Positions 19,979 to 53,093 of a stretch of DNA of 64,000 bases are shown here, piece after piece. The stretch is taken from the NCBI GenBank assembly GCA_031383405.1, contig JANMZO010000480.1, positions 2,829 through 66,828 of the forward strand, in the 5' to 3' direction. The DNA comes from Acidimicrobiia bacterium (lineage in GTDB: Bacteria; Actinomycetota; Acidimicrobiia; Acidimicrobiales; JANYDT01). How positions within the stretch are numbered: position 1 is the first letter of the stretch; each line of letters opens with the position of its first letter. The notes beneath the pieces are model-generated. The model did no database searches and was not told the origin of the DNA. It saw only the letters and a program-made list of their open reading frames with translations. The position numbers and the translations under genes were made by a program.

Positions 19979-21502
19979 CTAATTGGCGATTGCGCCGATG
20001 AAACTGGAGAGATCGACGAGCTTCGTTACCAGGGCCGGGTAAACGCCGACGGCCATAACGCCCGCGATACAAAGACCCATCGCGAGCGTAAGCGAGGCCG
20101 GAATACGGATGGGCGTGCGGTCGCCGTCGGGAACCGGACGCATCCACATTTCCCGCATGATGCCGGCGTAGTAGTAGAACGCGATGACCGAGTTGACTGC
20201 TGCGATCACCGCGAGTCCCACGGCCCACGGGGTGCCCGCATCCATCAGCGACTTGAAGACGAAGAACTTCGCCCAGAAGCCACCGAACGGCGGAATACCC
20301 GCGAGCGAAAACATGAAGATTGTCATAGCCACGGCTGGAACCGGCGCGTAGCTCAGCAGCCCGCCATAGGAGCTGATCTCGCCGGACCGGGTCTTGCGGG
20401 CCACGATGATCACGATCGAGAACGCTCCAAGGTTCATCACGGCGTAGACGATCAGATAGGTCACGATAGCGTCGAATGAACTGCGTGCGGCCGACTCGTT
20501 GGCATTCGCAATAGCGAACGGCGCAAGGATGAACCCGGCCTGCGCTATCGACGAATACGCGAGCATACGGACGATGTTCGTTTGCTTCAACGCAATCAGG
20601 TTGCCGACAATCATCGTTGCGACAGCCAACACCCAGAACACCGGCTGCCAGACGTCTGAGCGTCCGAAGAAACCGACGTAGATCAACTGCATCAGGGCCA
20701 CGAACCCGGCGGCCTTCGACGCAACCGACAGGAACGCGGTGACCGGAGTAGGCGCGCCTTCATAGGTATCGGGCGCCCACTGATGGAACGGTACCGCCGA
20801 AACCTTGAAGGCGAAGCCGACGATGATCAAGAAGATCCCGACGGTGAGGATCGGCGGTGTGGAACCCGACCGCACGGTGGCTGCGATGTCGGTGAGCAAC
20901 GTGGCTCCGGTTACGCCGTAGACCAGCGACATACCGTAGAGCATCACGGCCGACGCGACGACACCGAGCAGGTAGTACTTCATCGCCGCCTCGTTGGACT
21001 TCGGGTCACGCTTTCGCCAACCAGCCAGCAGATACGCCGGGATCGACATTGTTTCCAGAGCGATGAAGATCGTGATCAGATCACGAGAGGAGCACATGAC
21101 AACCATGCCGAGCAGCGAACACACGAGGAGAAAGCTGAACTCGCCCTCGTAATAGTCGCCTTCCGACACGTAAAGCGAGGACAGCAGCAACACGATGTAA
21201 CCACTCAGCAGAAACATCGCCTTGAGGAGCAACGCGTAGTTGTCGACGACGTATCCGCCGCCGAACAACGAACGGTCCTGACCGTTGACAGCGAGGGTCA
21301 GCAGCGGGATGCCGGCGAGAGCGACGCCGATACCGGCGATGGTCGTAATCCAGAACTTCCGGGTTTCGTCGAGGAACAGATCGATGATCAGGATCGCGAC
21401 AGCAACGACGGTGAGAGCAATTTCGGGCGCTATTGCGTGGAGATCGACATGGGGGGCGTCGAACTTGGCAGCGCCAAGCACACCCGCAAGTGTTGCGAGC
21501 AT
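19979..21502 (-). CDS. nuoN: Complex I subunit N (cluster 2)
   Basis: EAAMKYYLLG, FKVSAVPFHQWAPDTYEGAP, MLAYSSIAQ. Confidence 0.93.
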   Translation of the reverse strand: MLATLAGVLGAAKFDAPHVDLHAIAPEIALTVVAVAILIIDLFLDETRKFWITTIAGIGVALAGIPLLTLAVNGQDRSLFGGGYVVDNYALLLKAMFLLSGYIVLLLSSLYVSEGDYYEGEFSFLLVCSLLGMVVMCSSRDLITIFIALETMSIPAYLLAGWRKRDPKSNEAAMKYYLLGVVASAVMLYGMSLVYGVTGATLLTDIAATVRSGSTPPILTVGIFLIIVGFAFKVSAVPFHQWAPDTYEGAPTPVTAFLSVASKAAGFVALMQLIYVGFFGRSDVWQPVFWVLAVATMIVGNLIALKQTNIVRMLAYSSIAQAGFILAPFAIANANESAARSSFDAIVTYLIVYAVMNLGAFSIVIIVARKTRSGEISSYGGLLSYAPVPAVAMTIFMFSLAGIPPFGGFWAKFFVFKSLMDAGTPWAVGLAVIAAVNSVIAFYYYAGIMREMWMRPVPDGDRTPIRIPASLTLAMGLCIAGVMAVGVYPALVTKLVDLSSFIGAIAN

Positions 21503-21510
21503 GGTCGTTC

Positions 21511-23034
21511 CTACCCGAAGACCTTCGTCAGCACCTGGACGGCCGGGTCGGTGACGTTGAACATGAGCTTCGGCCAGAGACCGAACACGACTATGCCAAT
21601 GAGGAGAGGGGTCCAGGCGAGCCATTCGTGCGTGGTCACATCATCGAACTCATGACCCTCCCACTCACTCTTTTGCGTACCGAAGGCGGTCCGCTGGTAG
21701 AGCCAGAGCAGGTAGCCGGCAGCGAACACGGTTCCGACCGCGGCGACAACCATAAGCGTGCGGAACAAGGCGACATTCAGCGCGGGGGCCGGCTGATATG
21801 TGGCCATGATCGCCGGGAACTCACCCCAGAAGCCGGCGAGACCGGGCAGACCGAGCGATGCCATCGAAGCGAAACCGAGTATCCAACCGAGACGGGGCAT
21901 GGTCTGCAGCATGCCACCCATTCGATTGATCTCGAGGGTGTGGAAGCGTTCCTTCACCGAACCGGCGCAGAAGAACAGCATGCCGGTGATGAGTCCGTGG
22001 GCGACCATGCCGAAGAGTGCAGCATTGATGCCGAAGCTCGTGAGCGTCGAGATGCCGAGCATCACATAGCCCATGTGCGCGACCGAGGAAAAGGCAATCA
22101 GCCGTTTCATATCGGTCTGGGCCAGACAGCCGAGCGCTCCGTAGATGATTCCGATCGCAGCCAGGATGCCGATGACGGGAGCCCAGGTCTTTGCCGCTTC
22201 GGGGAGGATCGGAATTGCGATCTTTATGAAACCGAACGTGCCGAGCTTCAGGAGGACGGCAGCCAGGATGACGGAGCCAACCGTCGGTGCCTCGGTGTGC
22301 GCGTCTGGCAACCACGTATGGAACGGGAACATCGGGACCTTGACCGCAAAGCCCATGAAGATACCTCCAAAGATCAGCGTCTGCGTGTTCTTCGGGATAC
22401 TTGCGTTGGCCACGTTGGCCGTGAGTTCAGCGATGTCGAACGTGCGGCCGGCCTTGAAGTAGAGCGCCAGGAAGCCCAGAAGCATGAACGCCGAACCGAA
22501 CATCGTGTAGAGGAAGAACTTGATCGAGGCGTACTGCCGGTTCGGCCCGCCCCACACGCCAATGAGGAAATACATCGGGAGCAGTGTGAGTTCGAAGAAG
22601 ACAAAGAACAGGATGAGGTCCTGGGCGACGAACACACCGTTCATGCCCACTTCGAGCAACAGCATCAGGGCGAGAAGGGCCTTGGGGTTGTGGGGTTCGG
22701 GCCAGTGGTCCCAGGAGTAGATGATGCAGAGAACAATCACCACGGTCGACAGCAGCAGCATAGGGAGGCCCATGCCATTGAGGCCGATGTGGTAGCGCGA
22801 GTTGATGACTTCGATCCAGCTCTTGTTCTGGACGAACTGGTTTTCGCCCGCTTTGTCAAAATTGAAATAGGTCGCCGCCACGACCGTCATGGCCATCGTC
22901 GCGAGAGCAAACCCGAGCCCGACGGTCTTTTGACTCGACTCATCATCGCGTGGCATGAGTGCGACGGCGATAGAGCCGAGTAGCGGCAGAAAGATGATGA
23001 GGGTGAGGCCCCAGTTGTTGACAAAACTTTCCAT
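21511..23034 (-). CDS. nuoM: Complex I subunit M (cluster 2)
   Basis: KFFLYT, KVPMFPFHTWLPDAHTEAP, LLKLG, FWGEF. Confidence 0.95.
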   Translation of the reverse strand: MESFVNNWGLTLIIFLPLLGSIAVALMPRDDESSQKTVGLGFALATMAMTVVAATYFNFDKAGENQFVQNKSWIEVINSRYHIGLNGMGLPMLLLSTVVIVLCIIYSWDHWPEPHNPKALLALMLLLEVGMNGVFVAQDLILFFVFFELTLLPMYFLIGVWGGPNRQYASIKFFLYTMFGSAFMLLGFLALYFKAGRTFDIAELTANVANASIPKNTQTLIFGGIFMGFAVKVPMFPFHTWLPDAHTEAPTVGSVILAAVLLKLGTFGFIKIAIPILPEAAKTWAPVIGILAAIGIIYGALGCLAQTDMKRLIAFSSVAHMGYVMLGISTLTSFGINAALFGMVAHGLITGMLFFCAGSVKERFHTLEINRMGGMLQTMPRLGWILGFASMASLGLPGLAGFWGEFPAIMATYQPAPALNVALFRTLMVVAAVGTVFAAGYLLWLYQRTAFGTQKSEWEGHEFDDVTTHEWLAWTPLLIGIVVFGLWPKLMFNVTDPAVQVLTKVFG

Positions 23035-23051
23035 GGCGTTTGGGGAGACTC

Positions 23052-25340
23052 CTAGACGAACAGGGCGAGGGCGAGGCCGATGATGCCAACACCACCGAGG
23101 AATAGAGCGGCGTAGTTTTGAACGCGACCGCTTTGGAGGATGCGAAGGACGCCGCCGCCTTCGCGGGCCGCTGATCCGGAGCCGTTGACGAGACCGTCGA
23201 CAAGCCCCTGGTCAACAAACTTGTAGACGAGCTTGCCACTGGCGGCAGCCCCGGTCCCCACCGTGTTGACCACTCCGTCGAGGACGTTTTGGTTGACCCA
23301 GTAGGCAGCTTTCGCAATCGGTCCCCGTATGGAACCAAAGACGACCCCGGTCCACAGGTGATCGAGGTAATACTTTTTCCTGAGGAGGTTGTGGAACCAG
23401 CGGGCCGGGGCAAAGCGACGGACTAACCCCAGGTCACCTTTCAGCACCCCGTAATAGACGGCCGAAGCCACAATGCCGCCGACGGCGAGAGCAATGGATG
23501 GGGCGGCAACGCTCCACGTGAACTCTCGGAGAAGCCCATTGTGAACGATTGATTCTTCAAAGACGCTGTTGGCGATGAAGTGCTCGAACCAATACTTACC
23601 CGGCCACTGCAGAAGGCCCACCAGCAGGGTTGGAATCGCCAGAAACACGAGCGGCGCAACAATCCACCAGTTCGACTCGTGTGGTCCGTCTTCCCCCCCG
23701 TGCGCGTCGCTGTGACCCGCATGCGCGTCGAGGGCCTCATGCACATCCTGGGTGTCGTGCGACACGTGCGTGTCGTGCTCATCTTGGACCTGTGCGTCTT
23801 GACCGTGGTCATCATGGGCCAAATGCAGACGGTTCTCGCCGAAGAACGTCTTGTACATAACCCGGGTCATGTACGCGGCCGTGAGGAAGGCACCGACACA
23901 ACCAGCCGCGAACGCGAAACCAAAGTGGTTCTCCTTCGCGTGCGTCAGGATTTCATCTTTGGAGAAGAAGCCCGAGAAAGGCGGAATTCCGGACAGCGCT
24001 AAATAACCCACGGTGAACGTACCAAACGTCCATTTCATCGATTTGCGCAATCCACCCATACGATCCATCTCGAAAGAGTGGTGGCTACCGGAATGCGAGA
24101 CCGAGCCAGCGGCCTGGAAGAGCAGCGCCTTGAAGAACGCGTGCGTGAAGAGGTGGAAGATCGCTCCGGCCCAGGCACCGACCGACAGGCCCATCACCAT
24201 GTAGCCGAGCTGCGACACGGTCGAGTACGCAAGCACCTTCTTGATGTCGGTCTGCACAAACGCGAGGAGCGCAGCCATCACGATCGTGATCGAACCGATC
24301 CAGGCACCGAGATTCATACCGCCGGCGGCGATGGAAAAGCCTTTGAAGAACACGCCGTAGAGGCGACCGAACAGATACACACCGGCAACGACCATCGTGG
24401 CCGCGTGGATGAGCGACGACGCGGGAGTCGGTCCGGCCATGGCATCGGGCAACCAGGTATGGAGCGGGAACTGGGCCGACTTGCCGACGACGCCACTGAA
24501 CAGGCAGCACGCCGAAACCAGCAGTAAGCCCTGTCTGATCCCACCGTTGAGGGCCAGTTCGTTGGTGTGCGCAATGTCGAATGTCTGACCCGAAGCCCAG
24601 AACAGGATGATGATACCTACGAGTAGACCGATGTCGCCGGTTCGGGTCGTCAGGAACGCCTTGACCGCGGCCGTGGAATTGTTGTTGTCCTCCCACCAGT
24701 GGCCGATGAGGAGGAACGAACACAGGCCCATCATCTCCCACCCGAAAAGCAGGCCGAGGGTCGTGGCACTCTGAACCATCCACAACATGGCGCCGGTGAA
24801 GAGAGCGAGCGATGCGAAGTAATGCACGAACCTGCTGTCAGTGCGGAGGTACTCCCGCGAGAAGACGTGCACACAGAACGAAATGAAACTGACCACGAAC
24901 AGCATCGCCACGGCGAAACCGTCGATATGGCTGCCCAGTTCGATCTTGACGTTGCCGTCGTTGTACCAGGTGATGATGTTGCGGACCGGCTCCCGGAGCA
25001 TGACGGGTCCTGCTTCTTCCGCCGCCTTGACCGCAAAGCCCCTGCTCCCACCGAACGAAAGCGCCGCTTCCTCGGTTGCCCCCTCGGTCGTTTCGGCCTT
25101 GGTCGTGGCACCCTCATTCGATCCGACCTCAGCGGTGACTTCGGTGGTGACTTCGGAAGTGACGGCAACCTTCTCACGCTGGTTCCACTGCACACCTGCG
25201 ACGGTGGACAGGACGAGACAGGCGGTTACGGCCAACTGGCCGACCCACCAACCACCCTGCGGCAGCTTCTTGCCGACGAACAAAATTATGACGAAGGCCC
25301 CAACCATCAGGGCAGGCAGAATCCACGCGTTCTGGAGCAT
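23052..25340 (-). CDS. nuoL: Complex I subunit L (cluster 2) with acidic and His-rich insertions
   Basis: GKSAQFPLHTWLPDAMAGPTP, IHAATMV, HAFFKALLF. Confidence 0.95.
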   Translation of the reverse strand: MLQNAWILPALMVGAFVIILFVGKKLPQGGWWVGQLAVTACLVLSTVAGVQWNQREKVAVTSEVTTEVTAEVGSNEGATTKAETTEGATEEAALSFGGSRGFAVKAAEEAGPVMLREPVRNIITWYNDGNVKIELGSHIDGFAVAMLFVVSFISFCVHVFSREYLRTDSRFVHYFASLALFTGAMLWMVQSATTLGLLFGWEMMGLCSFLLIGHWWEDNNNSTAAVKAFLTTRTGDIGLLVGIIILFWASGQTFDIAHTNELALNGGIRQGLLLVSACCLFSGVVGKSAQFPLHTWLPDAMAGPTPASSLIHAATMVVAGVYLFGRLYGVFFKGFSIAAGGMNLGAWIGSITIVMAALLAFVQTDIKKVLAYSTVSQLGYMVMGLSVGAWAGAIFHLFTHAFFKALLFQAAGSVSHSGSHHSFEMDRMGGLRKSMKWTFGTFTVGYLALSGIPPFSGFFSKDEILTHAKENHFGFAFAAGCVGAFLTAAYMTRVMYKTFFGENRLHLAHDDHGQDAQVQDEHDTHVSHDTQDVHEALDAHAGHSDAHGGEDGPHESNWWIVAPLVFLAIPTLLVGLLQWPGKYWFEHFIANSVFEESIVHNGLLREFTWSVAAPSIALAVGGIVASAVYYGVLKGDLGLVRRFAPARWFHNLLRKKYYLDHLWTGVVFGSIRGPIAKAAYWVNQNVLDGVVNTVGTGAAASGKLVYKFVDQGLVDGLVNGSGSAAREGGGVLRILQSGRVQNYAALFLGGVGIIGLALALFV

Positions 25341-25348
25341 GTTCGACC

Positions 25349-25648
25349 TCAGCCTTTCATCTGCGAGACGTCGGAAATGTCGATACTGCGACGGTTCCGG
25401 TAGATGAGTAGGACGATCGCGAGGCCGACACCGACTTCAGCGGCGGCCACCGCGATCGCAAACAGTGCGAATACGTGGCCGATGATGTTGTCGTTGCGAA
25501 CCGAGAACGCGATCAGGTTCATGTTGACGGAGTTGATCATCAACTCAATCGACATGAGGACCAACACGGCGTTGCGACGGGCCAGTACGCCGTAGACACC
25601 ACAGCAGAAGAGGAAGGCGGCAAGGATCAGAAACTGGTTGATCAACAT
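25349..25648 (-). CDS. nuoK: Complex I subunit K (cluster 2)
   Basis: [18 protein letters not shown]. Confidence 0.95.
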
Positions 25649-25656
25649 GGCAACGC

Positions 25657-26169
25657 TCAGTCCCTTCGGGCCACTACGACGGCGCCGACCAATGCGGCGA
25701 GCAGCAGGATCGACGTCACTTCAAACGGGACCAGGTACGTCGAAAAAATAGAGTCGGCCACCCGGGATGTTGTGACCCCGGAAGCGCCGCTTGCCAACCC
25801 GTTCTGGAGGTCGAGCTTCTCCTTGCCGAAGGCATCGATCAGGAGTGCACCGAGACCGGCGAACAGAAAGAGCGCTACCGCAGCCGAGATCGCCCTCTGG
25901 TCGTTGTCGAGCTGCTGCTCTTTGCCGATCGGAGCCCGGGTGAGCATGATCCCGAAGAGGATGAGCACCATGATCGCACCCACGTACACGAGAATCTGGA
26001 CCACAGCCACAAACTCGGCGGCGAGAAGGATGTACTGACCGGCCATACCGGACAGGACAATCACGAGATACAACGCGGCATGCACCACATTTTTCGTGGT
26101 GACGAGTTTGACGGCCGATATGGCCATCGCCGCGGCCAGGAGGCCAAAGAAGAGGTTCTGTGCGAACAC
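25657..26169 (-). CDS. nuoJ: Complex I subunit J (cluster 2)
   Basis: [22 protein letters not shown]. Confidence 0.94.
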
Positions 26170-26180
26170 GGGTCGGCAGG

Positions 26181-26699
26181 CTACTTCTTCTTGGCGTCGG
26201 CCCCAACCTCAAGGGCCGGCTTGGTGGGGACAGTTTCCATCCACTCGCCAAGACGTGTCTTGTCGTGCAGAAGGTCCGCGATGGTCGGGGTCGAGTACTC
26301 GTATTCCGGGCTCCAGAACAGCGCGTCGAACGGACAGACTTCCACACAGATACCGCAGTACATGCAGAGGCTGTAGTCGATGTCAAAACGATCGAGAAGC
26401 TGCACCGTTCGGGGCTTGCCACCTTCTCGGCGGGGTGGGGCCTTGTCTTTATGACCTTCGATGTAGATACACCAGTCGGGACAACTGCGGGAGCAGAGCA
26501 TGCACGCCGTGCAGTTCTCCTCCTTCAGGGCAATCACCCCGCGAGCCCGGGTTGGCGGGTCCTCACGGACGTGCGGATACTGGACCGTCTGGTTTGGACG
26601 GAACAACTCCTTGATCGTGACGCCGAGGCCGCCGGTGAGGCTGCGGGCGATGTCGCCGACCTTGGAATCGCGTAGCGCTCTCGGGAGTGGAAGAGGCAT
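26181..26699 (-). CDS. nuoI: Complex I subunit I (cluster 2), 2x[4Fe-4S]
   Basis: CTACMLCSRSCP and CMYCGICVEVCP; ATG overlaps the nuoH stop (TGATG). Confidence 0.93.
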   Translation of the reverse strand: MPLPLPRALRDSKVGDIARSLTGGLGVTIKELFRPNQTVQYPHVREDPPTRARGVIALKEENCTACMLCSRSCPDWCIYIEGHKDKAPPRREGGKPRTVQLLDRFDIDYSLCMYCGICVEVCPFDALFWSPEYEYSTPTIADLLHDKTRLGEWMETVPTKPALEVGADAKKK

Positions 26700-27751
26700 C
26701 AGAAGGCAACCTTCAAGACGGCGGTGACCATGATGTTCACGAGCGAAATCGGGATGAGGTACTTCCACGCGATCGACTGCAGTTGATCCTCGCGGAAACG
26801 GGGGTAGCTGAAGCGGAACCAGAAGATGAGAAATGCCACGAACATCACCTTGGCGAAGAGGATTCCCGGGCCGAGAACGTTGGCGAGATTGTTGGCGACC
26901 CAGGCGTCTGGCATTGGAAGGTACCAGCCGCCGAGGAAAAGCGTTGCCGCGATCGCCGAGAGGGCGAACGCCGAGGCGACCTCACCGAGGACGAACGACA
27001 GGAAGCGGAAGCCCGAGTACTCGGTCATGTATCCGGTAACGAGTTCGGATTCGGCGACCGGCATGTCGAAGGGGGCCTGTGTGAGTTCAGCTTGTGCGGC
27101 GATCATGAAGATCACAAACCCGACAAACTGCGTCGCGACGAACGGCATGCCGGCCAGGTTGAGACCGAAGATCTGGAACTGCTGCTGGGCGTGCACGATG
27201 TCCTGGAGGCTCATCGAACCCGCTTGGATAACGACACCAATGACGGCAAGCACCAGTGGGAGCTCGTAGGCAATGAGCTGGCCGGCGGCGCGGAGTGATC
27301 CCATGAGGGAGTACTTGTTGGCGCTCGCCCAACCGGCCATCAAGATGCCGAGCACACCTATCGATGAAACCGCCAGGGCATAAAAAATTCCAACTTTGAG
27401 GTCGCTGATGACGAGGTCGGGACCAGCCGGAATAACGAGATAGAGCATGAACGTCGACATGACAACGACGTACGGCGCCAACGAGAAGACCCACTTGTCG
27501 GCCTTCGCCGGGATGATGTCTTCCTTTTGGATGAACTTCACCGCGTCGCCGATGTTCTGGTACCAGCCGTGGAAACCTCCCGGGTCCATCGGGCCGAGGC
27601 GGGATTGCATGTGGGCCATCATCTTCAGCAGGAAGACATATCCAATCAGCAGGCCACCAACCGGAATGACGACCAGAACTGACAAGAGCTTGACGCTCGT
27701 CCAGAACCAGTAGGCATTGAGCGTGAAGTCGGCAAGGACGGCTGCGTTCAC
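26699..27751 (-). CDS. nuoH: Complex I subunit H (cluster 2)
   Basis: QSRLGP, DAVKFIQKED, PFDMPVAESELV, PRFREDQL; GTG at 27751 with GAGGG RBS. Confidence 0.94.
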   Translation of the reverse strand: MNAAVLADFTLNAYWFWTSVKLLSVLVVIPVGGLLIGYVFLLKMMAHMQSRLGPMDPGGFHGWYQNIGDAVKFIQKEDIIPAKADKWVFSLAPYVVVMSTFMLYLVIPAGPDLVISDLKVGIFYALAVSSIGVLGILMAGWASANKYSLMGSLRAAGQLIAYELPLVLAVIGVVIQAGSMSLQDIVHAQQQFQIFGLNLAGMPFVATQFVGFVIFMIAAQAELTQAPFDMPVAESELVTGYMTEYSGFRFLSFVLGEVASAFALSAIAATLFLGGWYLPMPDAWVANNLANVLGPGILFAKVMFVAFLIFWFRFSYPRFREDQLQSIAWKYLIPISLVNIMVTAVLKVAF

Positions 27752-27834
27752 GGATACCCTCGGGTCGACGAGGGGCAAGCCGACGTCCGGCAAACCGGTG
27801 CAAGCGGAGGGGGGATCGAAACAAACGTCTTCAT

Positions 27835-29789: not shown

Positions 29790-29886
29790 GGCGCAAAGAC
29801 TAGTGAATGAACGACCCCACCTAACAAACGTCGGTGGAAAAACGATGAGATTTTTCACTTTTCTCGAACGAATCACCGCTGGCCGT

Positions 29887-30672: not shown

Positions 30673-30896
30673 CCAAAGACCTCCGACCAACGCCCGGATC
30701 CGGGCCGCTCCAACTCAGGTGGAGGGGAGTCTGACCAGCCTACGGACCAACCGGGTGGTCAAGGAAGGCGGAACATGCGCGCAGGCATCGGGTCAGCGTC
30801 GCCCTGTGCCTGCGGCGTGTTCACTGCGTCGCGCTTTTCGGGATCCGGGTGTCACGACAGGGAAGGCGGTGCGCCGACGCTCCGCCACGATCGGGC

Positions 30897-31780: not shown

Positions 31781-31867
31781 GATTGTTGATCCTACTGGTG
31801 ATCGGAGGAAACGAACGAAACGGAAGAGTTGGAGAGTTGTTGTCGTCGGGTCGGACACAAAGTCGTG

Positions 31868-38579: not shown

Positions 38580-38581
38580 AG

Positions 38582-42489: not shown

Positions 42490-42520
42490 GGCTCGTTGAT
42501 CTCGGGTAGCGCGAAAATCA

Positions 42521-43846: not shown

Positions 43847-43903
43847 ATGAGTCCTACGTTGTTAAGCGTACGTACGAAAGGGAACTAGAAGACGAAGGGA
43901 AAA

Positions 43904-44467
43904 TCAGAAGGTCTGTCGTGAAGCTCGCCGGTCAGAGGGAATCGATTGACGAACCTTACCCAGCGAGCCGTGCGACGGGATATCCGAGCGCCGTCCGGCG
44001 CGTATTTCGGTCACCAGCGAATCGAAACCGGAATTGCTCACCCTGTACTCGTAGCGGTAGTTAACCTGCAGACACGGTGCCTCCGTACACGCAGCCAGGC
44101 ACTCCATCTCCTCAAGCGTGAACAGTCCGTCGGCCGTCGTCGCGCCAGCCCGGATGCCGAGCGATTTCTCCGCATGCTCCAGCAGTTCCTCGCCGCCGAC
44201 CAGCAGGCACGAGATGTTGGTGCACACGCCCACGATGTACTTGCCCACCGGATGGAACTTGAACATCTCATAGAAGCTCGCCGTGCCGTAGACCTCAGCC
44301 GACGTACAGCCCACGAGTTCGGCGATCTGCACCATCGCGTCCTCAGTCAGATACCCGTCTTGCTCCTGGGCCAGATGGCACAGCGGAATTGTGGCGCTCT
44401 TCGAACGCGGATAATGACCGACGAGTTCTTTGGCGCGTTCGAGATTGGAGGCACTGAAGCGAGCCAT
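43904..44467 (-). CDS. nuoE: Complex I subunit E ([2Fe-2S])
   Basis: VCTNISC...ECLAACTEAP. Confidence 0.96.
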   Translation of the reverse strand: MARFSASNLERAKELVGHYPRSKSATIPLCHLAQEQDGYLTEDAMVQIAELVGCTSAEVYGTASFYEMFKFHPVGKYIVGVCTNISCLLVGGEELLEHAEKSLGIRAGATTADGLFTLEEMECLAACTEAPCLQVNYRYEYRVSNSGFDSLVTEIRAGRRSDIPSHGSLGKVRQSIPSDRRASRQTF

Positions 44468-45768: not shown

Positions 45769-45770
45769 AG

Positions 45771-46292
45771 CTACCTCGCGGTTCCTTCTTTGAACTGCAC
45801 CGGAATCCGGCCAGTCGCATAGTCCTTGCGCAGGGGATGACCTTCCCAGTTGTCGGGTAACAGGATCCGGGTTAGGTCCGGATGGCCATCGAAGTTGACG
45901 CCGAGCAGGTCAAAGGCTTCTCGCTCCATTGCTTCAGCACCCGGGTACAGGTCGTAGAGCGATGCGACCGTGCAGTCGGCCTCCGGCACCTGGACCCGCA
46001 CGCGGACCCGCTCACGCCGGGCATGCGACAGCAGGTTGGCGACCACTTCGAAGCGTTCGGCCGCAATGCCGACCGGAAGTTCGCGGGTGTGGTTGCCGAG
46101 ATAGTCGACCGCGCAAAGATCCGACAGCTGAGCAAAGCCCTCACCCTTCAGCGACCTGACAATCTGGAGATAGTCAGCGCGCCTAGGATGCACGACCTTC
46201 TCGCCCCGACTGTACGACACGGGGGATCCATGAAGAGTCTCGAGGGCAGGTGGTGGGGCTTCTGCGGGAGTCGAGACATCGGATGTCGACAT
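45771..46292 (-). CDS. nuoC: Complex I subunit C (cluster 1)
   Basis: EREAFDLLG...GHPDLTRIL...GHPLRKDY. Confidence 0.95.
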   Translation of the reverse strand: MSTSDVSTPAEAPPPALETLHGSPVSYSRGEKVVHPRRADYLQIVRSLKGEGFAQLSDLCAVDYLGNHTRELPVGIAAERFEVVANLLSHARRERVRVRVQVPEADCTVASLYDLYPGAEAMEREAFDLLGVNFDGHPDLTRILLPDNWEGHPLRKDYATGRIPVQFKEGTAR

Positions 46293-46840
46293 TACTTCGG
46301 GCGTCCGATAGCGATAGTTGGAGGGGGAACATCGAGGAGAATCGATGCGCCGACACCTGTCTCGCTACGGCGCTTGGCGATCTCGCCCGTCTCAATCTTC
46401 TTGTGAATCGTAAGGATGGCGTGAATCAGGGTCTCGGGGCCCGGAGGGCAACCCGGGGCGTAGACATCGACCGGAACAATCTGGTCGACGCCCTGCACAA
46501 TGGCGTAGTTGTTGAACATGCCACCCGACGACGCACACACTCCCATCGCGATGACCCACTTCGGTTCCATCATCTGGTCGTAGACCTGACGAAGAACAGG
46601 AGCCATCTTCTGCGACACGCGTCCGGCCACGATCATGAGATCGGCTTGACGCGGCGAAGCGCGAAAGACCTCCATGCCGAAGCGGGCGAGGTCGAAACGC
46701 GATGCACCGGTCGCCATCATCTCAATCGCGCAGCAGGCCAAGCCGAACGACGCCGGCCAGACGCTGTTCTTACGCGACCAACTGACCAGACTTTCGACAG
46801 AACCGGTCAGAAAATTGTGATTGAGATCTTCGAGCCCCAT
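46292..46840 (-). CDS. nuoB: Complex I subunit B (cluster 1)
   Basis: [21 protein letters not shown]. Confidence 0.97.
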
Positions 46841-46843
46841 GGA

Positions 46844-47314
46844 TTAGGCCGCCTCTACTGGGGGAACAACCGGCTCCGGACGACCCACTCGACGGATCGT
46901 CGACGACGTCGAACGTGCCTGCGTCAGCGTCTTCTCCGCCGAACGCAATGCCGACACCGGACCCCAGTCGAGGGCGCCATTCGAGATCAGATATGTGAAG
47001 GCTACGACCACCGCAGCGGAGAACATGACCATCTCGGTCAAGCCGAAAAGCCCGAGCTGGCTGAACGTCACGGCCCACGGGTACAAGAAGATGACCTCGA
47101 TGTCGAAGATTATGAAGATCATCGCCACGAGATAGAACTTGACCGGGAACCGTTCGGCGGGTTCGTGTTCGGGAACGATTCCGCATTCGTAGGGTCCGAT
47201 CTTCGCTGCGTTCTCGCGACGCTTCGGACCGAGGAGAGCCGAAGCTACGAACGAGCCGAATACGAAGAGGGTGGCTACGAGAAACAGCAGAAGAATCGGA
47301 AGGTAGTCGCCCAC
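46844..47314 (-). CDS. nuoA: Complex I subunit A (cluster 1)
   Basis: PYECG, FIIFDIEVIFLYPWA. Confidence 0.95.
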   Translation of the reverse strand: MGDYLPILLLFLVATLFVFGSFVASALLGPKRRENAAKIGPYECGIVPEHEPAERFPVKFYLVAMIFIIFDIEVIFLYPWAVTFSQLGLFGLTEMVMFSAAVVVAFTYLISNGALDWGPVSALRSAEKTLTQARSTSSTIRRVGRPEPVVPPVEAA

Positions 47315-47319
47315 GACAA

Positions 47320-48156
47320 CTACGCCCTCGCCGGCTTCAGGGATGCCATGTGGGCCATCAACTGCTTATCCCGCTTGTGAAGGCTGAGCACACTGATCAC
47401 AAACAGCACCATCGAACACATGAAGATGAAGAACGGTGGTTGACGCTTCGTGCCAGCATCCCGGTAGCCGACCACGTAGATGGGCTTGGCCGCGGTATCG
47501 ACAACAAAGGCACCTTTATCGTCTTTGACCGGTTCACCGACATCGTTGGTTTTGTAGGTCTGAATGATCTCCACGATGTAGTGCTTGGAGTGAAGAAGAC
47601 CCATCATCCGGTAGCTCGTAGGGTCGTACCACTTCTCGCCCTTTATTTTTCGGGGCCGGATCTTCAAACGCTGATCGCCGCCAGTTTCATAGGTGGCGAT
47701 CGCTTTGTACCGCTCCGCTCCGGTGGCGGGAAAAAGTGCGGCTCCACCGTCTGCGACCGGTTTTTTGAGGAAGGCACCCAGTGCCGCACTGGAGTCGCCG
47801 GCCGTCGTCGAACCAGCCTTCACGACACGCCAGCCCTTGATGTCCATGTCGGGCTTGGCTGGCAGCAGGGCCACCTTTTCGATCTGAGCGCTCGACGGGT
47901 CAGTAATTGCTTCGATGCCCTTCCACGACGGATCTTTGCCCTTAAGGCCGATCCCGTACATCATCCAGACGACACACATCAGTGCCATCCAACCCCAGAA
48001 TGCGGCATTGGCAAGAAGGAAACCGAGCCGGTTGCCGACGTTCGTGGACAAGATGACGTAGGTGCTCCCACAAAGGATCAGGAACATGATTCCGGGGAAC
48101 AGAATGCCCCGGATAGTGGGATCCCACTTCAGAATGGCTAGAACAGCAGAAAGCAT
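47320..48156 (-). CDS. Hypothetical membrane protein linking the bc-type cluster to nuoA
   Basis: Two N-terminal and one C-terminal hydrophobic segments; start overlaps the cytochrome c stop; ends 5 nt before nuoA. Confidence 0.75.
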   Translation of the reverse strand: MLSAVLAILKWDPTIRGILFPGIMFLILCGSTYVILSTNVGNRLGFLLANAAFWGWMALMCVVWMMYGIGLKGKDPSWKGIEAITDPSSAQIEKVALLPAKPDMDIKGWRVVKAGSTTAGDSSAALGAFLKKPVADGGAALFPATGAERYKAIATYETGGDQRLKIRPRKIKGEKWYDPTSYRMMGLLHSKHYIVEIIQTYKTNDVGEPVKDDKGAFVVDTAAKPIYVVGYRDAGTKRQPPFFIFMCSMVLFVISVLSLHKRDKQLMAHMASLKPARA

Positions 48157-49436
48157 TACAGGCCCCGCTCGTAGTCGACGATGGCTTCGATTTGTTTGTC
48201 GGTGAGGATGTTGCCGAAATACGGCATACCACCGCCACTCCAGTGGTTCACACCACCGCTTCCGTAGGCTTCAGAGTCGCCCACACCCTTGGTGATGAAG
48301 TCGATCTGGCTCGCCTTGTCAGGGAACTGCCGCTTGAGGGAGTCCTTGCGCAGTGCGGGACCGTAATAGCCACCGCCCTGCTCCTTGGGCTCGCCATAGC
48401 TGTAACCGTTGGTGTGGCATCGCGCGCAATTAAGGTTGAACAGGATCTCACCATCGGATTTTTCGAGCGTGGCCTTCGCGTCGGCGATTCCCTTTGTTGC
48501 CAATGCAAGCGCGGCTTCGGCGTTGTTGATTGCAGTCGGTTTACCTGCGGCCTTCGCGTCGTCGATCGCCTTCTGCGCGTCGGCAAGTGTCTTGGACTCG
48601 CCCTGGGCGGTCTTCCCGGCGGCAACTTTGAATTCTTCGAACGCCTTCGTGTTGGCTTCCTGTGAATCCTTCTGTGCGGCGACAAACGCCGCGTCGTAGG
48701 CCTTCACCGCATTGTGGGTCTTGTCCCACGTGTCGGTGTACGCCTGCTTGGCGACCGGGTTCTCCTCGATCGCGACGTGCTTCAAATAATTCACGAGGTC
48801 GTCGATCTGCTGGCTGTTACCCGGGCCACCGCCTTTGGTTCCCCATGGCGGCATTGGATTGTTCTTTGCCTTGCCCCGACCGTAAATGAGCACGTTGCGA
48901 ATCTGGTCGGGACGGTAGCGAAGCGCCACATTGTTGATTCGCGGAGCAGACCACGAGACCGAATTCAGCTTTTGCTTTCCGTTCGCGGCATCAATGATGG
49001 GGTTGTTGTTCTCGTCGTACTGCGGCACCAGCCAAGGAGCAGCACCGCCACCACCGTTGGCACCATGGCACTTCGCGCAGTTGAAGCCATTGTGTTCGGC
49101 CCCGAACAACTGCTCGCCGCGATGGACACTTCGCTTGTCGAAACCAAAAATTGCGCCGACCTCTCGACTCGGTTCGTTGAGCCAGTACAGCGGAAGCGAC
49201 AGGGCGACGAGCGTCATCGAAACGAGCGCCCATCCAAGCCAGCGGTCAAGACGCGGTCCTTCGAACACCTCGTCGTCGGGCGCAGACTTTCGGTTGGCGG
49301 CGTTGAGAAAGCTTTGGACAGTGTCTGCGGGGGTGCGGCGGTTCTCGAGGACGACATACACGGCCCACACCACCAGCGCGGCCACGAGGAGGACGAGCGC
49401 TACGGCTCGCTGGGTTGGAAGTGCAGCGACTATCAC
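48156..49436 (-). CDS. Membrane-anchored diheme cytochrome c
   Basis: Two CxxCH motifs (CAKCH, CARCH), each followed by a MP axial-ligand candidate; two N-terminal TM segments. Confidence 0.88.
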   Translation of the reverse strand: MIVAALPTQRAVALVLLVAALVVWAVYVVLENRRTPADTVQSFLNAANRKSAPDDEVFEGPRLDRWLGWALVSMTLVALSLPLYWLNEPSREVGAIFGFDKRSVHRGEQLFGAEHNGFNCAKCHGANGGGGAAPWLVPQYDENNNPIIDAANGKQKLNSVSWSAPRINNVALRYRPDQIRNVLIYGRGKAKNNPMPPWGTKGGGPGNSQQIDDLVNYLKHVAIEENPVAKQAYTDTWDKTHNAVKAYDAAFVAAQKDSQEANTKAFEEFKVAAGKTAQGESKTLADAQKAIDDAKAAGKPTAINNAEAALALATKGIADAKATLEKSDGEILFNLNCARCHTNGYSYGEPKEQGGGYYGPALRKDSLKRQFPDKASQIDFITKGVGDSEAYGSGGVNHWSGGGMPYFGNILTDKQIEAIVDYERGL

Positions 49437-49515
49437 GATCAGATTCCTTGGCGTTCGGTGCGAACGAATGGGTATTGGTGGTCAGACACGGCTACCTGAG
49501 TACGCATCCGCGCCC

Positions 49516-50415
49516 TCACTCTTTTCCACCGACGCAGTGTGGACCTTCAGCGGTTTGGCCGGTGGTGTTCGTACCGTCGGCCGGGCCCTGACGAACACCT
49601 GATGTATCAATCGAAACGACGCCGTCGGAGACCGAAACATCGAAACGATCGAGGCCGCGAGGGGCTGGGCCGCCTCGACGCTCACCTACGCGGTTGTACT
49701 GGGATCCATGACACGGGCACTCGAACCACTGGGAGCTTTCGCACCAAGGAACCTTGCAGCCCAGATGCACGCACTTCTGGTAAATCCCAACCAGTCCCTG
49801 TTCCATACCCGCGTACACGCCCGGCGAATAGACACTCCTGGCCTTGTCGAGCACCGCCTTCTCGGTCGGATACGGAATGAGATAGCTGCGCGCCTCGGCG
49901 ACGTACTTCGGACCCTTGGCCGTGGCAAGTTCGTTCTTGATGTCGTCGAGCTTGCCCACCGCTACCTTGGCACCGAAGCCACCGCTCAACGAGGGCCACA
50001 GGAATGCCAGAACCGCACCACCGAAACCGCCAAGGCCGAGGAGCATCATCACTGTCGTACCACGGTTGAGAAACTGGCGACGGCTGACGCCGAGCTGCTC
50101 GTAGTCGAGCGGCGCGCGGATTACGTCGGGCAGGCTGGGCGCGCTGTTCACCGCAACCTGGTCAGAAACACCCCGACGGGCGAGCGCAACGGAACGCTCG
50201 GCGGAGCGTCCGCTGGGCGGAGGCGGAGGCACCGACGCACCCGATTTCGCCGCTGAGGCATCGGCCTTCGCTCGGGCGCGATCGCGGCGAACAGTCTCGC
50301 GTGCCAGTAGGCCGGTCGCGGCGTTGCGGTCACTGTTACGAGCCGTGACTATGAAGAAACCCACCGCGGCGAGCGCGATGGCGGCGATGATAATTAGTAA
50401 GGCGATTCCACTCAT
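49516..50415 (-). CDS. Rieske iron-sulfur subunit of a Rieske/cytochrome b complex
   Basis: SRRQFL twin-Arg motif + TM; CVHLGC and CPCHGSQY boxes; GPAPRGL. Confidence 0.93.
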   Translation of the reverse strand: MSGIALLIIIAAIALAAVGFFIVTARNSDRNAATGLLARETVRRDRARAKADASAAKSGASVPPPPPSGRSAERSVALARRGVSDQVAVNSAPSLPDVIRAPLDYEQLGVSRRQFLNRGTTVMMLLGLGGFGGAVLAFLWPSLSGGFGAKVAVGKLDDIKNELATAKGPKYVAEARSYLIPYPTEKAVLDKARSVYSPGVYAGMEQGLVGIYQKCVHLGCKVPWCESSQWFECPCHGSQYNRVGERRGGPAPRGLDRFDVSVSDGVVSIDTSGVRQGPADGTNTTGQTAEGPHCVGGKE

Positions 50416-50439
50416 GAGCGTTTCCTTAGGTCGAGACTC

Positions 50440-51273
50440 TTAGAGCTCGAAGAAGATGCCTTCCCGCCACGGGAAGATGAAGTTGTACCCCGGGCCCCGG
50501 AAGAATGAGCTGATGATGACGAGAACAGCCCAGAACATTAGGAAGATCGAGAAGAGCGAGATTGCGATTTTGCGGTCCTCGGGTTTGTTCGACGGGTTCT
50601 TGTCGACGTAGGGCGTCATGCCCAGGATGAACAAACCCATACCGGGAATCGTCACACCCGCCACCATTGGATCGAACATCGTGAGCAGTTCCTGCAGGCC
50701 GAGGAAGTACCACGGAGCTTTCGCCGGGTTTGGCGTCTGGTTGTAGTTGGCCAGTGCGAGAAGCGGGGCATTCACAAATGTCGAGAGCACCATCAGCACG
50801 ACGAGACAGGCGAGCGACGCCACGAACTCACCAACGAGGAGATGCGGCCAGGTGCTCACCTTGTCGGTCGGTACCGCCTTCACGTCCTGAATTGATCCGG
50901 CCTTGACCACCGTAAGCAGGCGCTGTGTGTGTCCGTCGGGGCCGACCAGACCGGCGGTTGACGAAGTGGCAAGAGCACCGGTCGCCGCGGCTGCGGCACC
51001 TGTTGGCCTGTCGAGAACGGCAACGCCACCGCCGGCCGGCGCAGTTCCACCATCGGAGGCCGACGCTTTGGCCGCCTTCGCGGCCTCGCTGCGGGCGAGG
51101 AGGTGCGCCGGGATCTTTCCGGTCGCCTCGGCCTCGGCATAGCTCGCCGCCGAGTCGTCGACCGGAGGGGCGCTGGCCGCCGGAGCGTCGGGTGCAGCGC
51201 CACCGGCCTTTTCCGCCAGCTTGCGGGCTTTTGCCTCCGCGGACTTCCGCTTCATTTCTTCGAGATCAGCCAT
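50440..51273 (-). CDS. Cytochrome b C-terminal part (subunit IV/PetD-like) with Ala-rich N-terminal extension
   Basis: TWPHLL...TPNPAKAPWYFLGLQELL (APWY in place of PEWY), PYVDK, three TM helices. Confidence 0.85.
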   Translation of the reverse strand: MADLEEMKRKSAEAKARKLAEKAGGAAPDAPAASAPPVDDSAASYAEAEATGKIPAHLLARSEAAKAAKASASDGGTAPAGGGVAVLDRPTGAAAAATGALATSSTAGLVGPDGHTQRLLTVVKAGSIQDVKAVPTDKVSTWPHLLVGEFVASLACLVVLMVLSTFVNAPLLALANYNQTPNPAKAPWYFLGLQELLTMFDPMVAGVTIPGMGLFILGMTPYVDKNPSNKPEDRKIAISLFSIFLMFWAVLVIISSFFRGPGYNFIFPWREGIFFEL

Positions 51274-51321
51274 GGGTCAGCTCAGTTCTCACAATGGTTT
51301 GAGGGAAACGGATCACCGGCG

Positions 51322-52095
51322 TCACAGTGGACCGGAGATGCCGCCGTCTTTACGGACACGCCAGAAATGGATGGCCATGAAGATCACGATGATGAACGGG
51401 AACAACAGCACGTGGAGCACGTACCAGCGAAGCAAGGTGTCGGTGCCGATCTCAACGCCCGACAAGAGAACGAAACGGGACTGGGGGCCGAACACCGGGG
51501 TGTATCCGATCATATTTGTACCAACCGTCACGGCCCAGAGCGCCAGTTGATCCCACGGCAGCAGATATCCGGTGAACGACAGCAGCAGTGTGAGCGTGAG
51601 AAGAATTACGCCGATGATCCAGTTGAACTCCCGCGGAGCCTTGTAGGCACCGTGGTAGAAAACTCGCGCCATGTGCAAGAAGACAGAGAGCACCATGAGG
51701 TGGGCTCCCCATCTGTGCATGTTTCGCACGAGAAGGCCGAACGACACGGCCGTGTGAAGGGTCTGGATGTCCTGCCAGGCCAGCGCTTCGGTGGGACGGT
51801 AGAAGAACATCAGGAAGATGCCGGTCACCGTGAGGATAATGAACAAGAAGAACGACAGACCACCGAGGCACAGCGTGTAGCTCACCTTCACGGCATGGCG
51901 CTTCACCTTCACGGGGTGTAGGTGGTAGAGCAGCGAGTTCATGATCACGTAGCTGCGGTTACGCGGCGAGTCGCTATAGCCCTTACGGAAGATCGAGCCC
52001 GGGCGGAAGATCGAGCCCCAGGCCTGGCTGCCTTGAACTTTGTCGACCGTCTCCGCGAGTTTGGCGCTCGGTCCTGGCTTCATTGGTGTTGCCAC
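51322..52095 (-). CDS. Cytochrome b6-like N-terminal subunit (PetB-like)
   Basis: YTLCLGG (heme ci Cys position), RNMHRW...FLH, GYLLPWDQ, LH-x14-H, C-terminus GISGPL; start 52095 or 52083. Confidence 0.92.
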   Translation of the reverse strand: MATPMKPGPSAKLAETVDKVQGSQAWGSIFRPGSIFRKGYSDSPRNRSYVIMNSLLYHLHPVKVKRHAVKVSYTLCLGGLSFFLFIILTVTGIFLMFFYRPTEALAWQDIQTLHTAVSFGLLVRNMHRWGAHLMVLSVFLHMARVFYHGAYKAPREFNWIIGVILLTLTLLLSFTGYLLPWDQLALWAVTVGTNMIGYTPVFGPQSRFVLLSGVEIGTDTLLRWYVLHVLLFPFIIVIFMAIHFWRVRKDGGISGPL

Positions 52096-52160
52096 AAGGT
52101 CACCTGCATTGTTTCTGGTACAAGGAAAAGGGATCAGTCGGGGGTCTGGGACTTGGTGCG

Positions 52161-52574
52161 CTAGAAGCGCATTCCGTAGGAGTAGCCGTGCTTGTTGTCG
52201 CGCATGTGCTGGTCGCCGTCGCGCGGGGCAACGCCGGCCTTGCCCATGATGATCACACCGGTCGGGCAGCGGTCGACACATAGACCGCAGCGGGTGCAGA
52301 CATCTTCATCGACGACGAATATCACATGATCGTCGGGATCGGTACCCGGAGCAACCACGTTCGTCGAGTCTTCGACCGTTCCCGCAGAAAGCATATGGAT
52401 ACACTTCCAGGGGCAAATGTCGACGCAGCCTTCGCACATGATGCACTCGGACTGGTCGATATGCAGGAACTGCTTGGGCTTCACGCTCCTATTCAGTTCC
52501 TCGACCGTGATTTCGGCGAGCGTGTAATTGCCGGGAAAATACGGAAGGGGGGGATTTGCTTCGTTTTTCGCCAC
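52161..52574 (-). CDS. 2x[4Fe-4S] ferredoxin
   Basis: CIMCEGCVDICP and CTRCGLCVDRCP. Confidence 0.92.
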   Translation of the reverse strand: MAKNEANPPLPYFPGNYTLAEITVEELNRSVKPKQFLHIDQSECIMCEGCVDICPWKCIHMLSAGTVEDSTNVVAPGTDPDDHVIFVVDEDVCTRCGLCVDRCPTGVIIMGKAGVAPRDGDQHMRDNKHGYSYGMRF

Positions 52575-52577
52575 GGC

Positions 52578-53093
52578 TTACGCCTTCCTCACCAGCGGGC
52601 GACCATACGTCGAACTCGTTTCAAGAGCTTTCAACTCGGCGGCTTTCTTGCCGCGGCGCTGCCACCCGGTCCATAAAAAGCCGTGCGCACCGAGGAACAC
52701 GATGTAGAACGTCGCAGCGATGATGTCGCGGATCGTCTGTTTCGTGACACCAAGCCGGCCGCGACCGAAGAAGGTGACTCCATCGGGCCACAACACGTTC
52801 TTGGAATGGCTGAACCAGTGGTTGTTCCAACTCTTGGGAGTAAGTTTTCCAAAGGGACCGACAGGGATTCCTTTGATATCCGAGCGCCAGTTCAGAGTGT
52901 TCCCGTTCGCCCACTTCAAGAAGGTGTCGGGCACGATGCCGTACGCCAAAACAAAAATTGAGAACACGGCCAGGCCCCCGACCATCGCCTCACCCCACGT
53001 GAGGGGGGTGCCGACAGGACGTTTCTTGCCATAGGCCCAAACTGCCCCGATGACCACGACCAGAGCAAGCATTGATCCGAAGAACGCAACCAC
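52578..53093 (-). CDS. Hypothetical membrane protein, first gene of the respiratory block
   Basis: Three hydrophobic segments; 3-nt gap to the ferredoxin; C-terminal STYGRPLV. Confidence 0.75.
   Translation of the reverse strand: MVAFFGSMLALVVVIGAVWAYGKKRPVGTPLTWGEAMVGGLAVFSIFVLAYGIVPDTFLKWANGNTLNWRSDIKGIPVGPFGKLTPKSWNNHWFSHSKNVLWPDGVTFFGRGRLGVTKQTIRDIIAATFYIVFLGAHGFLWTGWQRRGKKAAELKALETSSTYGRPLVRKA

Follow-up and report, generated by a model that had tools for sequence, protein, structure and literature searches.

A ferredoxin-like protein as a predicted subunit of the b6-type complex III encoded beside two complex I operons in Acidimicrobiia

In an Acidimicrobiia bacterium (assembly GCA_031383405.1; 6.0 Mb, 486 contigs, 97% complete), a single minus-strand gene array encodes a ferredoxin-like protein with two [4Fe–4S] clusters, a b6-type Rieske/cytochrome b complex with a cytochrome c (together the b6c operon), a complete 14-subunit complex I (nuo14) and an 11-subunit complex I without NuoE, NuoF and NuoG (nuo11). 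The array occupies positions 19979–53093 of the window, the whole 64,000-nucleotide (nt) stretch of contig JANMZO010000480.1 that was analysed (positions 2,829 to 66,828, forward strand). We propose, with a probability of roughly 0.6, that these are three separate respiratory enzymes whose genes already lay together before the deep-branching classes of Actinomycetota separated and have remained so, and that the ferredoxin is a subunit of complex III. On sequence evidence, the ferredoxin is best read as a predicted cytoplasmic (n-side) subunit of this b6-type complex. What is new is how deeply the three-module neighbourhood is conserved, and that the ferredoxin–b6c operon shares its distribution with a nuo11 that has tryptophan in its quinone pocket. 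The genes of the array are as follows.

52578–53093, minus strand: memA, a membrane protein of 171 amino acids (aa), first gene of the b6c operon, without a Pfam or NCBIfam match
52161–52574, minus strand: 2×[4Fe–4S] ferredoxin-like protein of 137 aa, matching Fer4 families, with two CxxCxxCxxxCP motifs
51322–52086, minus strand: cytochrome b6-like protein, the four-helix half (PF00033, 153 bits; NF040969 ExtP, 298.5 bits, cut-off 290)
50440–51273, minus strand: subunit IV-like protein (Cytochrom_B_C, PF00032)
49516–50415, minus strand: Rieske [2Fe–2S] protein of the actinobacterial type (PF00355)
48156–49436, minus strand: membrane-anchored dihaem cytochrome c (PF00034 and PF13442; two CxxCH motifs)
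47320–48156, minus strand: memB, a membrane protein of 278 aa, last gene of the b6c operon, with no family match
31868–47314, minus strand: nuoA–N, complete 14-subunit complex I, every subunit family matched (Pfam, NCBIfam)
43904–44467, minus strand: nuoE, within nuoA–N
42521–43846, minus strand: nuoF, within nuoA–N
39811–42489, minus strand: nuoG, within nuoA–N
19979–31858, minus strand: nuo11 set, nuoA, B, C, D, H, I, J, K, L, M and N (Pfam and NCBIfam families)
31415–31858, minus strand: nuoA2 (PF00507)
30897–31424, minus strand: nuoB2 (PF01058)
19979–29780, minus strand: nuoC2, D2, H2, I2, J2, K2, L2 (762 aa), M2 and N2, with family matches
27835–29067, minus strand: nuoD2, within nuo11

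The original prediction, made from the letters of this DNA alone, had described an unbroken minus-strand run that joins these modules into a possible ferredoxin–quinone circuit. Open reading frame (ORF) listing and Pfam and NCBIfam scans recovered every gene it named on the minus strand, in the order memA, ferredoxin, cytochrome b6, subunit IV, Rieske, dihaem cytochrome c, memB, nuoA–N and nuoABCDHIJKLMN, from the memA start at 53093 to the nuoN2 stop at 19979. The gene set and order were therefore borne out; the run itself is broken by a 206-nt gap and an ORF with a CHAP domain between nuoB2 and nuoC2. Intergenic gaps across the array are almost all between −4 and 79 nt: memA and the ferredoxin gene are separated by 3 nt, the ferredoxin gene and b6 by 74 nt, memB and nuoA1 by 5 nt, and nuoN1 and nuoA2 by 9 nt. 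The arrangement is beyond chance, given the same order in relatives. The start of cytochrome b6 at 52086 was set by orthologue alignment (the longest-ORF start, 52281, runs into the ferredoxin gene), and those of nuoC2, nuoI2 and nuoN2 are approximate. Genome-wide, there are two NuoD genes, both within the window, two cytochrome b genes and four NuoF-like genes. By a crude Kyte–Doolittle script, memA has about three or four hydrophobic segments, and in the Protein Atlas the neighbours of memA and memB are unannotated Actinomycetota clusters only. A promoter and terminator scan of 46500–54500 gave counts within shuffle expectation (1 versus 1.8; 11 versus 7.4).

The strongest evidence for the proposed role of the ferredoxin is its tie to cytochrome b6. 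Its gene is the immediate upstream neighbour of cytochrome b6 in 40/40 relatives, among them classes without adjacent nuo genes, so the claim that the ferredoxin is conserved with the cluster holds. A synteny survey across Acidimicrobiia, proposed together with the original prediction, was made on 40-kb regions from 20 genomes of 20 families, onto which all 33 window proteins were mapped by tblastn. The ferredoxin–b6–subunit IV–Rieske–cytochrome c order was found in all 20, and the identical five-gene order recurred outside the class in 20/20 loci from 8 families. The two membrane proteins are less constant: memA lies upstream of the ferredoxin in 17/20 relatives of the class, and memB follows cytochrome c in 15/20 of them and in 13/20 loci of other classes. 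Among 151 Acidimicrobiia genomes, this one included, the ferredoxin was matched in 136 and cytochrome b6 in 148, orthologous b6 proteins being 73–89% identical; in a second sample, of 151 Actinomycetota genomes, 68 have the ferredoxin. Class genomes without a ferredoxin match fall largely into three groups: those with only a distant or paralogous cytochrome b (G029, G047, G119, G135, G143, G078, G126 and G146), those in which no cytochrome b was found (G077, G118 and G130) and those in which b6 lies at a contig edge (G054 and G140). Outside these groups, G149 has only a partial b6 match.

The ferredoxin itself is highly conserved. All eight cysteines are invariant in the 22/22 rows of the alignment, and there is no transmembrane segment. 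Across the class, its length is fixed at 136–138 aa and its identity is 60–85%, with conserved tails at both ends (an N-terminal stretch with the consensus A-N-P-P-M-P and a C-terminal tail with the consensus H-G-Y-A-Y-G-x-R-F). Homologues number more than 2,000, and the best 120 are 74–85% identical and nearly all 137 aa long. Singleton predicted proteins that combine Fer4 with Cytochrome_B also exist, and may be either real fusions or frameshift artefacts.

Judged by its motifs, the complex III of the window is a predicted split b6-type Rieske/cytochrome b complex of the APWY clade with a haem-ci cysteine. PF00033 and PF00032 fall on separate, adjacent ORFs, a split shared by 40/40 relatives. 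The haem-ci site of cytochrome b6 reads T-L-C-L-G-G, and C73-L74-G75-G76 is invariant in 21/21 sequences. Such proteins hold their two b haems with four histidines, at spacings of 14 and 15 residues within helices B and D; the corresponding His124/His138 and His225/His240 are likewise invariant in 21/21. In subunit IV, the Qo motif reads K-A-P-W-Y, and A186-P187-W188-Y189 is invariant in 16/16. The Rieske protein has an internal twin-arginine motif (SRRQFL) and the boxes CxHxGC...CxCHGS[QK]Y in 20/21 sequences, that of G030 ending in F; the exact form CPCHGS[QK]Y occurs in 19/21, the exceptions being G030 and G014 (CGCHGSQY). The Ser/Tyr pair in this box marks high-potential Rieske centres. 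Cytochrome c has two CxxCH motifs in 21/21. Residues 1–140 of subunit IV form a cytoplasmic tail with two conserved IPEHLLKRS-like motifs separated by low-complexity sequence rich in Ala, Pro and Glu; this tail looks like a tethered docking peptide.

The APWY clade was defined by Kao & Hunte (2014; PMC4122944), who use CxGG as the haem-ci cysteine motif. Passages of that paper place one member of the Acidimicrobidae (Ilumatobacter) in the clade, and describe APWY complexes as uncharacterized in vitro and in vivo, with haem ci unverified for the clade. The window complex shares with this clade, which corresponds roughly to subfamily G in the sections of PMC5600118 on cytochrome b subfamilies, the split cytochrome b, the APWY Qo motif and the CxGG motif. 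It differs from the WCMGG given in PMC4122944 as the usual form in having T-L-C-L-G-G, and a stand-alone two-cluster ferredoxin and two membrane proteins of no known family are fixed parts of its operon. Cytochrome b6 also scores above the equivalog cut-off set for the ExtP model of Geobacter, and has a 47-residue N-terminal extension beyond that model, with invariant RPGS and DSPRNR residues. In the Geobacter Ext cluster, the cytochrome b of which is without this extension, no ferredoxin is present (PMC5877670); its ExtM is not a ferredoxin but a 12-haem cytochrome c. The b6c complexes of Firmicutes (Bacillus QcrABC and heliobacterial PetABCD) likewise combine a split cytochrome b with a haem-ci cysteine in non-oxygenic Gram-positive bacteria. 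They have a PDWY or PEWY Qo motif, and in Bacillus subunit IV is fused to cytochrome c. The passages on these operons describe no ferredoxin gene, in contrast to the operon in the window.

A second Rieske/cytochrome b-type cluster of the same genome, on contig C174 (L050, G000:C174:40000-50570; 4763–9086), offers a comparison. There, a cupredoxin, a flavoprotein of 609 aa and an unsplit cytochrome b of 483 aa are encoded in this order, and an IS110 transposase comes after them at the end of the contig. The flavoprotein (L050:5869-7698) is GltD-like and combines Fer4_20, an FAD/NAD(P) domain and a C-terminal 2×[4Fe–4S] domain, with four cluster motifs in all. Its C-terminal domain is 29% identical to the window ferredoxin, and matches to the ferredoxin at about 42% identity include many proteins of 591–627 aa built in the same way. 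The adjacent cytochrome b is 51% identical to b6, with which it aligns from residue 14, and 39% identical to subunit IV. Such flavoprotein subunits co-occur with subfamily G cytochrome b in the same layout, according to passages of Dibrova et al. (PMC5600118). The sections of PMC12954380 on the Rieske/cytochrome b complexes of anammox bacteria (Kuste4569-4574 and Kustd1480-1485) give these an n-side NAD(P) reductase, modelled with four iron–sulfur clusters leading from haem cN to FAD; the C174 cluster has the same type of flavoprotein beside its cytochrome b, and would match the inner-face iron–sulfur chain next to haem cN. Because a domain homologous to the ferredoxin (29–42% identity) is fused to a flavoprotein beside cytochrome b in both C174 and the anammox complexes, the window ferredoxin looks like the membrane-proximal part of such a subunit standing alone. 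The differences are equally clear. No FAD/NAD(P)-binding flavoprotein, such as that of the C174 cluster, was found in the window operon, which has only the 137-aa two-cluster protein; its cytochrome c is a dihaem protein and not a multihaem or HAO-like partner; and the organism, unlike anammox bacteria, is a presumed aerobe.

In the class genomes of about 1 Mb, the b6c cytochrome b is the only cytochrome b found (one match each), and haem–copper oxidase genes occur in 5/5 genomes tested, the ~1-Mb genomes included; therefore the b6c complex must work forward there. Reverse operation has been suggested for the APWY clade in the relevant part of PMC4122944, whereas the window type is apparently the sole complex III of aerobes with haem–copper oxidase. 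The memA–ferredoxin–b6–subunit IV–Rieske–dihaem c–memB set would accordingly be read as the quinol:cytochrome c oxidoreductase of the lineage, with, presumably, menaquinone as the substrate of the complexes here, as is general in the phylum. The 137-aa protein is probably a dedicated cytoplasmic subunit, the counterpart of the flavoprotein-fused iron–sulfur module. We infer that it binds b6 and subunit IV, and that it most likely would link haem bH/ci, at the inner face, with a partner in the cytoplasm by relaying electrons one at a time, as a side port of complex III.

The two complex I operons differ at the quinone site. The tyrosine of the R-x-D-Y motif in NuoD binds the quinone head group. 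NuoD1 keeps this motif (R-M-D-Y), with tyrosine in 19/19 NuoD1 sequences; NuoD2 reads R-I-D-W, with tryptophan in this genome and in 16/16 orthologues covering the site, five families of other classes included. NuoD2 retains the histidine of the GPQHPxTHG loop; it shares 39% identity with NuoD1, from which it also differs by the absence of an insert of 25 residues. The cysteine motifs of NuoB2, PGCPP among them, were read in its translation. On this evidence nuoA–N encodes a predicted ordinary NADH:quinone oxidoreductase, and nuoABCDHIJKLMN the known second complex I of the lineage, which has no NADH module and in which tryptophan replaces the quinone-pocket tyrosine throughout the family. The tandem of a full nuoA–N beside nuoABCDHIJKLMN is likewise described for Acidimicrobiia of Ca. 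Actinomarinales in passages of PMC7771536 and bioRxiv 10.1101/2021.02.01.429150, where F420 is suggested as donor. In those passages the nuo clusters are not linked to complex III, which PMC7771536 scores as missing; the ~1-Mb class genomes in our sample, by contrast, carry the ferredoxin–b6c operon. Beyond Ca. Actinomarinales, the tandem and its neighbouring b6c operon occur in other classes as well.

An analogy with the cyanobacterial and chloroplast b6f complex and NDH-1 had been drawn in the original prediction. As a resemblance it stands: both pair a split haem-ci-type cytochrome b complex with a complex I of 11 core subunits without NuoEFG, and NDH-1 uses ferredoxin (PMC8433477, in the part concerned). 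NDH-1 has a quinone-site tyrosine in NdhH/NuoD, as complex I does, and the ferredoxin-docking subunits NdhS/V/O. Membership does not follow, as NuoD2 has tryptophan at the position of this tyrosine and scores 335.8 against an NdhH cut-off of 583. The organism also has no photosystems, cytochrome c replaces cytochrome f, and the complex III operon itself contains the ferredoxin gene.

The three modules have stayed close to one another over long distances in the tree. Within the class, 12/20 genomes have nuo14 in the same direction as b6c and no more than 40 kb downstream of it, and in 10 nuo11 comes next. A whole-genome NuoD search of 10 genomes (the eight without nuo genes in the 40-kb region, plus G023 and G056) found both NuoD types in 10/10. 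In six of these 10 (G003, G025, G058, G064, G088 and G128), both nuo clusters are divergent, on the other side of the b6c operon, and in the ~1-Mb genome G005 they lie far from it. Outside the class, nuo14 is followed by nuo11 in 7/7 genomes of five families, with the ferredoxin–b6c genes 16–27 kb from nuoA1. Among 18 non-class genomes with ferredoxin and NuoD2 on one contig, the two are 32–55 kb apart in 13, 61–87 kb in 2 and more than 300 kb in 3.

In the phylum sample, ferredoxin and nuo11-type NuoD occur together in 62 genomes, ferredoxin only in 6, NuoD2-type only in 6 and neither in 77; without seven genomes flagged as unpublished, the counts are 56, 6, 5 and 77. These counts treat kin genomes as separate and so overstate the evidence, few evolutionary events lying behind the co-occurrence, and some discordant genomes sit at the E-value threshold. 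As a control, NuoF-like proteins occur in 114/151 phylum genomes, including at least seven families with neither feature. Five class genomes of the same order as the window genome (G029, G047, G119, G135 and G143) lack both the ferredoxin and the nuo11-type NuoD. Discordant cases exist: G118 and G130 (both 95% complete) keep both NuoD types with no cytochrome b or ferredoxin found, an absence that at this completeness is not proof, and may respire without complex III; G078 and G126 have the NuoD2 type with a paralogous cytochrome b only; and family f55 has NuoD2-type matches without ferredoxin. On contig G078:C10, from a family without the orthologous operon, the paralogous cytochrome b (49226–49753) lies between nuoD1 (78232) and nuoD2 (19434).

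Several observations weigh against the reading of the ferredoxin as a complex III subunit beside two independent complexes I. One class genome, G096, has an orthologous b6 without a ferredoxin match, the sole such case in that sample. A profile search of the PDB with the ferredoxin returned generic two-cluster domains only (MvhB, FwdF, NuoI, PscB and PsaC), and no Rieske/cytochrome b entry bearing such a subunit. The predicted single-chain fold has a mean pLDDT of 49.6, too poor for structural comparison. A soluble carrier, or a factor for maturation, could likewise be encoded next to b6. Finally, to speak of three separate enzymes may understate the link between b6c and nuo11, given their near-equal distribution and the 32–55 kb spacing in 13/18 genomes. 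Complex prediction of cytochrome b6, subunit IV and ferredoxin together (scores of 0.34, 0.07 and 0.28; median of 0.28 against a mark of 0.32) speaks neither for nor against binding. No paper on a ferredoxin subunit in b6-type complexes of actinobacteria turned up in a literature search; the operon figures and tables in the supplements to PMC4122944 and PMC5600118, which lay outside that search, may bear on the point.

The alternative to which we give most weight, although we still consider it unlikely, concerns nuo11: this complex could be an F420H2 dehydrogenase (or one using another soluble donor) like archaeal Fpo, unrelated to the ferredoxin, its juxtaposition with b6c reflecting a respiratory neighbourhood. 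The passages of PMC7771536 on Ca. Actinomarinales propose this. Consistent with it, the genome encodes a protein of 413 aa with Fer4, FrhB_N and FrhB_C domains, an FpoF-like architecture; CofH, an enzyme of F420 synthesis, was over the cut-off in 5/5 genomes tested; and NuoD2 matches the FpoD model over its whole length, the insert missing from it being absent from proteins of FpoD length too. The FpoF-like gene, however, lies on another contig, outside the cluster, and no FrhB_C match was found in two of five nuo11-bearing relatives, the ~1-Mb genomes G005 (94% complete) and G089 (87% complete). In addition, NuoD2 scores 331.5 against an FpoD cut-off of 600.

A second alternative, which we regard as improbable, takes the ferredoxin not for a stable subunit but for a soluble carrier expressed alongside b6c, or for a factor in its maturation or repair (for example, in haem or iron–sulfur insertion). 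Its lack of a membrane segment would agree with this, as would the presence of two membrane proteins of no known family in the operon and of haem synthesis genes next to it. Its fixed length, its 60–85% identity and its conserved tails fit a docked subunit better, and the fusion of the homologous domain to a flavoprotein beside cytochrome b, in the C174 paralogue and the anammox complexes, also argues against a free factor.

The link suggested in the original prediction, in which the ferredoxin bridges the haem-ci side of b6c to the headless complex I, as a circuit or a supercomplex (for example by handing the low-potential electron of quinol bifurcation to NuoI2, or with reverse or cyclic flow), seems to us distinctly doubtful. 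Much of the genomic context could be read in its favour: the head-to-tail placement of b6c, nuo14 and nuo11 here, with 5-nt and 9-nt junctions; the fit of all three modules into 40 kb, whether collinear or divergent, in the majority of the Acidimicrobiia families examined and in 7/7 genomes of other classes; the co-occurrence of ferredoxin and NuoD2 against the far wider spread of NuoF-like proteins; the five same-order genomes that lack both; and the ~1-Mb genomes, which keep nuo11 where an FpoF-like gene was not found. The Ser/Tyr box of the Rieske protein would also suit a bridge, in that the argument made for the anammox complexes in the corresponding section of PMC12954380 permits a very reducing low-potential branch. 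Against this, the ferredoxin gene is always beside cytochrome b6 and never beside nuo11, wherever the nuo genes sit, and the discordant genomes described above (G118, G130, G078, G126 and those of family f55) carry nuo11-type NuoD without it. The retention of this NuoD in G118 and G130, with no cytochrome b found, argues against obligate coupling of b6c and nuo11. The FpoF-like protein and the genes of F420 synthesis would offer nuo11 another donor. The co-occurrence stems from few evolutionary events among kin genomes that are not independent, the Trp-for-Tyr pocket of NuoD2 is unlike that of a standard ferredoxin:quinone reductase, and the clustering of hemA, hemC, hemB and hemL here too indicates that the neighbourhood may mean co-regulation only. 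The haem-ci site as the contact of the ferredoxin thus remains the best reading, in view of the CxGG motif (21/21), the adjacency (40/40) and the paralogue fusion; in this part the original prediction is supported, and service to the headless complex I is a candidate role.

A stronger form, in which b6c and nuo11 of deep-branching Actinomycetota are one machine with the ferredoxin as the ‘head’ contact, so that a low-potential electron from Qo passes through cytochrome b6, haem ci and the 2×[4Fe–4S] protein to NuoI2/NuoB2 and its return to the quinone pool pumps extra protons, is in our view very unlikely, and just as unlikely is its corollary that this pumping substitutes for the Qi half of the Q cycle or, run backwards, supplies low-potential reductant driven by the proton-motive force. 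If true, it would explain the retention of both modules in ~1-Mb genomes, their shared distribution and their lasting neighbourhood.

With the ferredoxin as a candidate complex III subunit, two questions gain a concrete system. In photosynthesis, it has been disputed for decades whether ferredoxin can feed or drain haem ci in complexes of the b6f type, and a non-photosynthetic lineage with a ferredoxin-like gene in its complex III operon opens the haem-ci question to tests by purification and structural work. Which donor supplies electrons to complex I without NuoEFG is unsettled in many bacteria; the ferredoxin–b6c complex, which shares the distribution and neighbourhood of nuo11, is a concrete candidate partner for it. 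Soils, fresh water and the sea all hold these bacteria in abundance. As complex III is scored as missing in one genome paper (PMC7771536), metabolic reconstructions may under-call their respiratory chain; if the ~1-Mb class genomes are the streamlined marine group of that paper, which is a guess, annotation pipelines miss the b6c complex.

The remaining features in and around the array are as follows.

29887–30690, minus strand: CHAP-domain endolysin-like ORF of 267 aa (PF05257, 56.6 bits), inside nuo11
53353–54201, plus strand: divergent c-type cytochrome upstream of memA (PF13442 and PF00034)
55716–57161, minus strand: hemL (Pfam)
57050–58084, minus strand: hemB (Pfam)
61947–62882, minus strand: hemC (Pfam)
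62879–63976, minus strand: hemA (Pfam)

The CHAP-domain ORF, which was absent from the gene list of the original prediction, is not part of the respiratory system. It matches phrog_21357, an endolysin, in PHROGs (87.2 bits), had no match in any of 27 relative regions examined, and nuoB2 and nuoC2 directly adjoin in 17/17 relatives. It lacks a signal peptide, its C-terminal tail is very basic, and its GC content (0.65) is slightly above that of its flanks. Repeats around it are short and at chance level only, and no target-site duplication was seen. Either a recent insertion or a chimeric assembly may account for it.

Two further candidates for an input module of nuo11 were considered. A nitroreductase gene that follows nuoN2 (18767–19453) was rejected, as it is not conserved in any relative region examined. 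On contig C269 (L051, ~6500–11200), a trio of NuoE-like, NuoF-like (40% identity) and NuoG-like (27% identity) genes probably encodes a module of the soluble formate dehydrogenase or diaphorase type, and is a conceivable head for nuo11.

Upstream of memA, the divergent cytochrome c has a homologue at the same position in five genomes of the same order (G123, G147, G019, G014 and G079). Directly upstream of the respiratory block, on the minus strand (55716–63976), are the haem genes hemL, hemB, hemC and hemA, interspersed with a formate/nitrite transporter gene, a DapD-like gene and msrA, and hemL and/or hemB are found near the b6c operon in 11 of the relatives examined.

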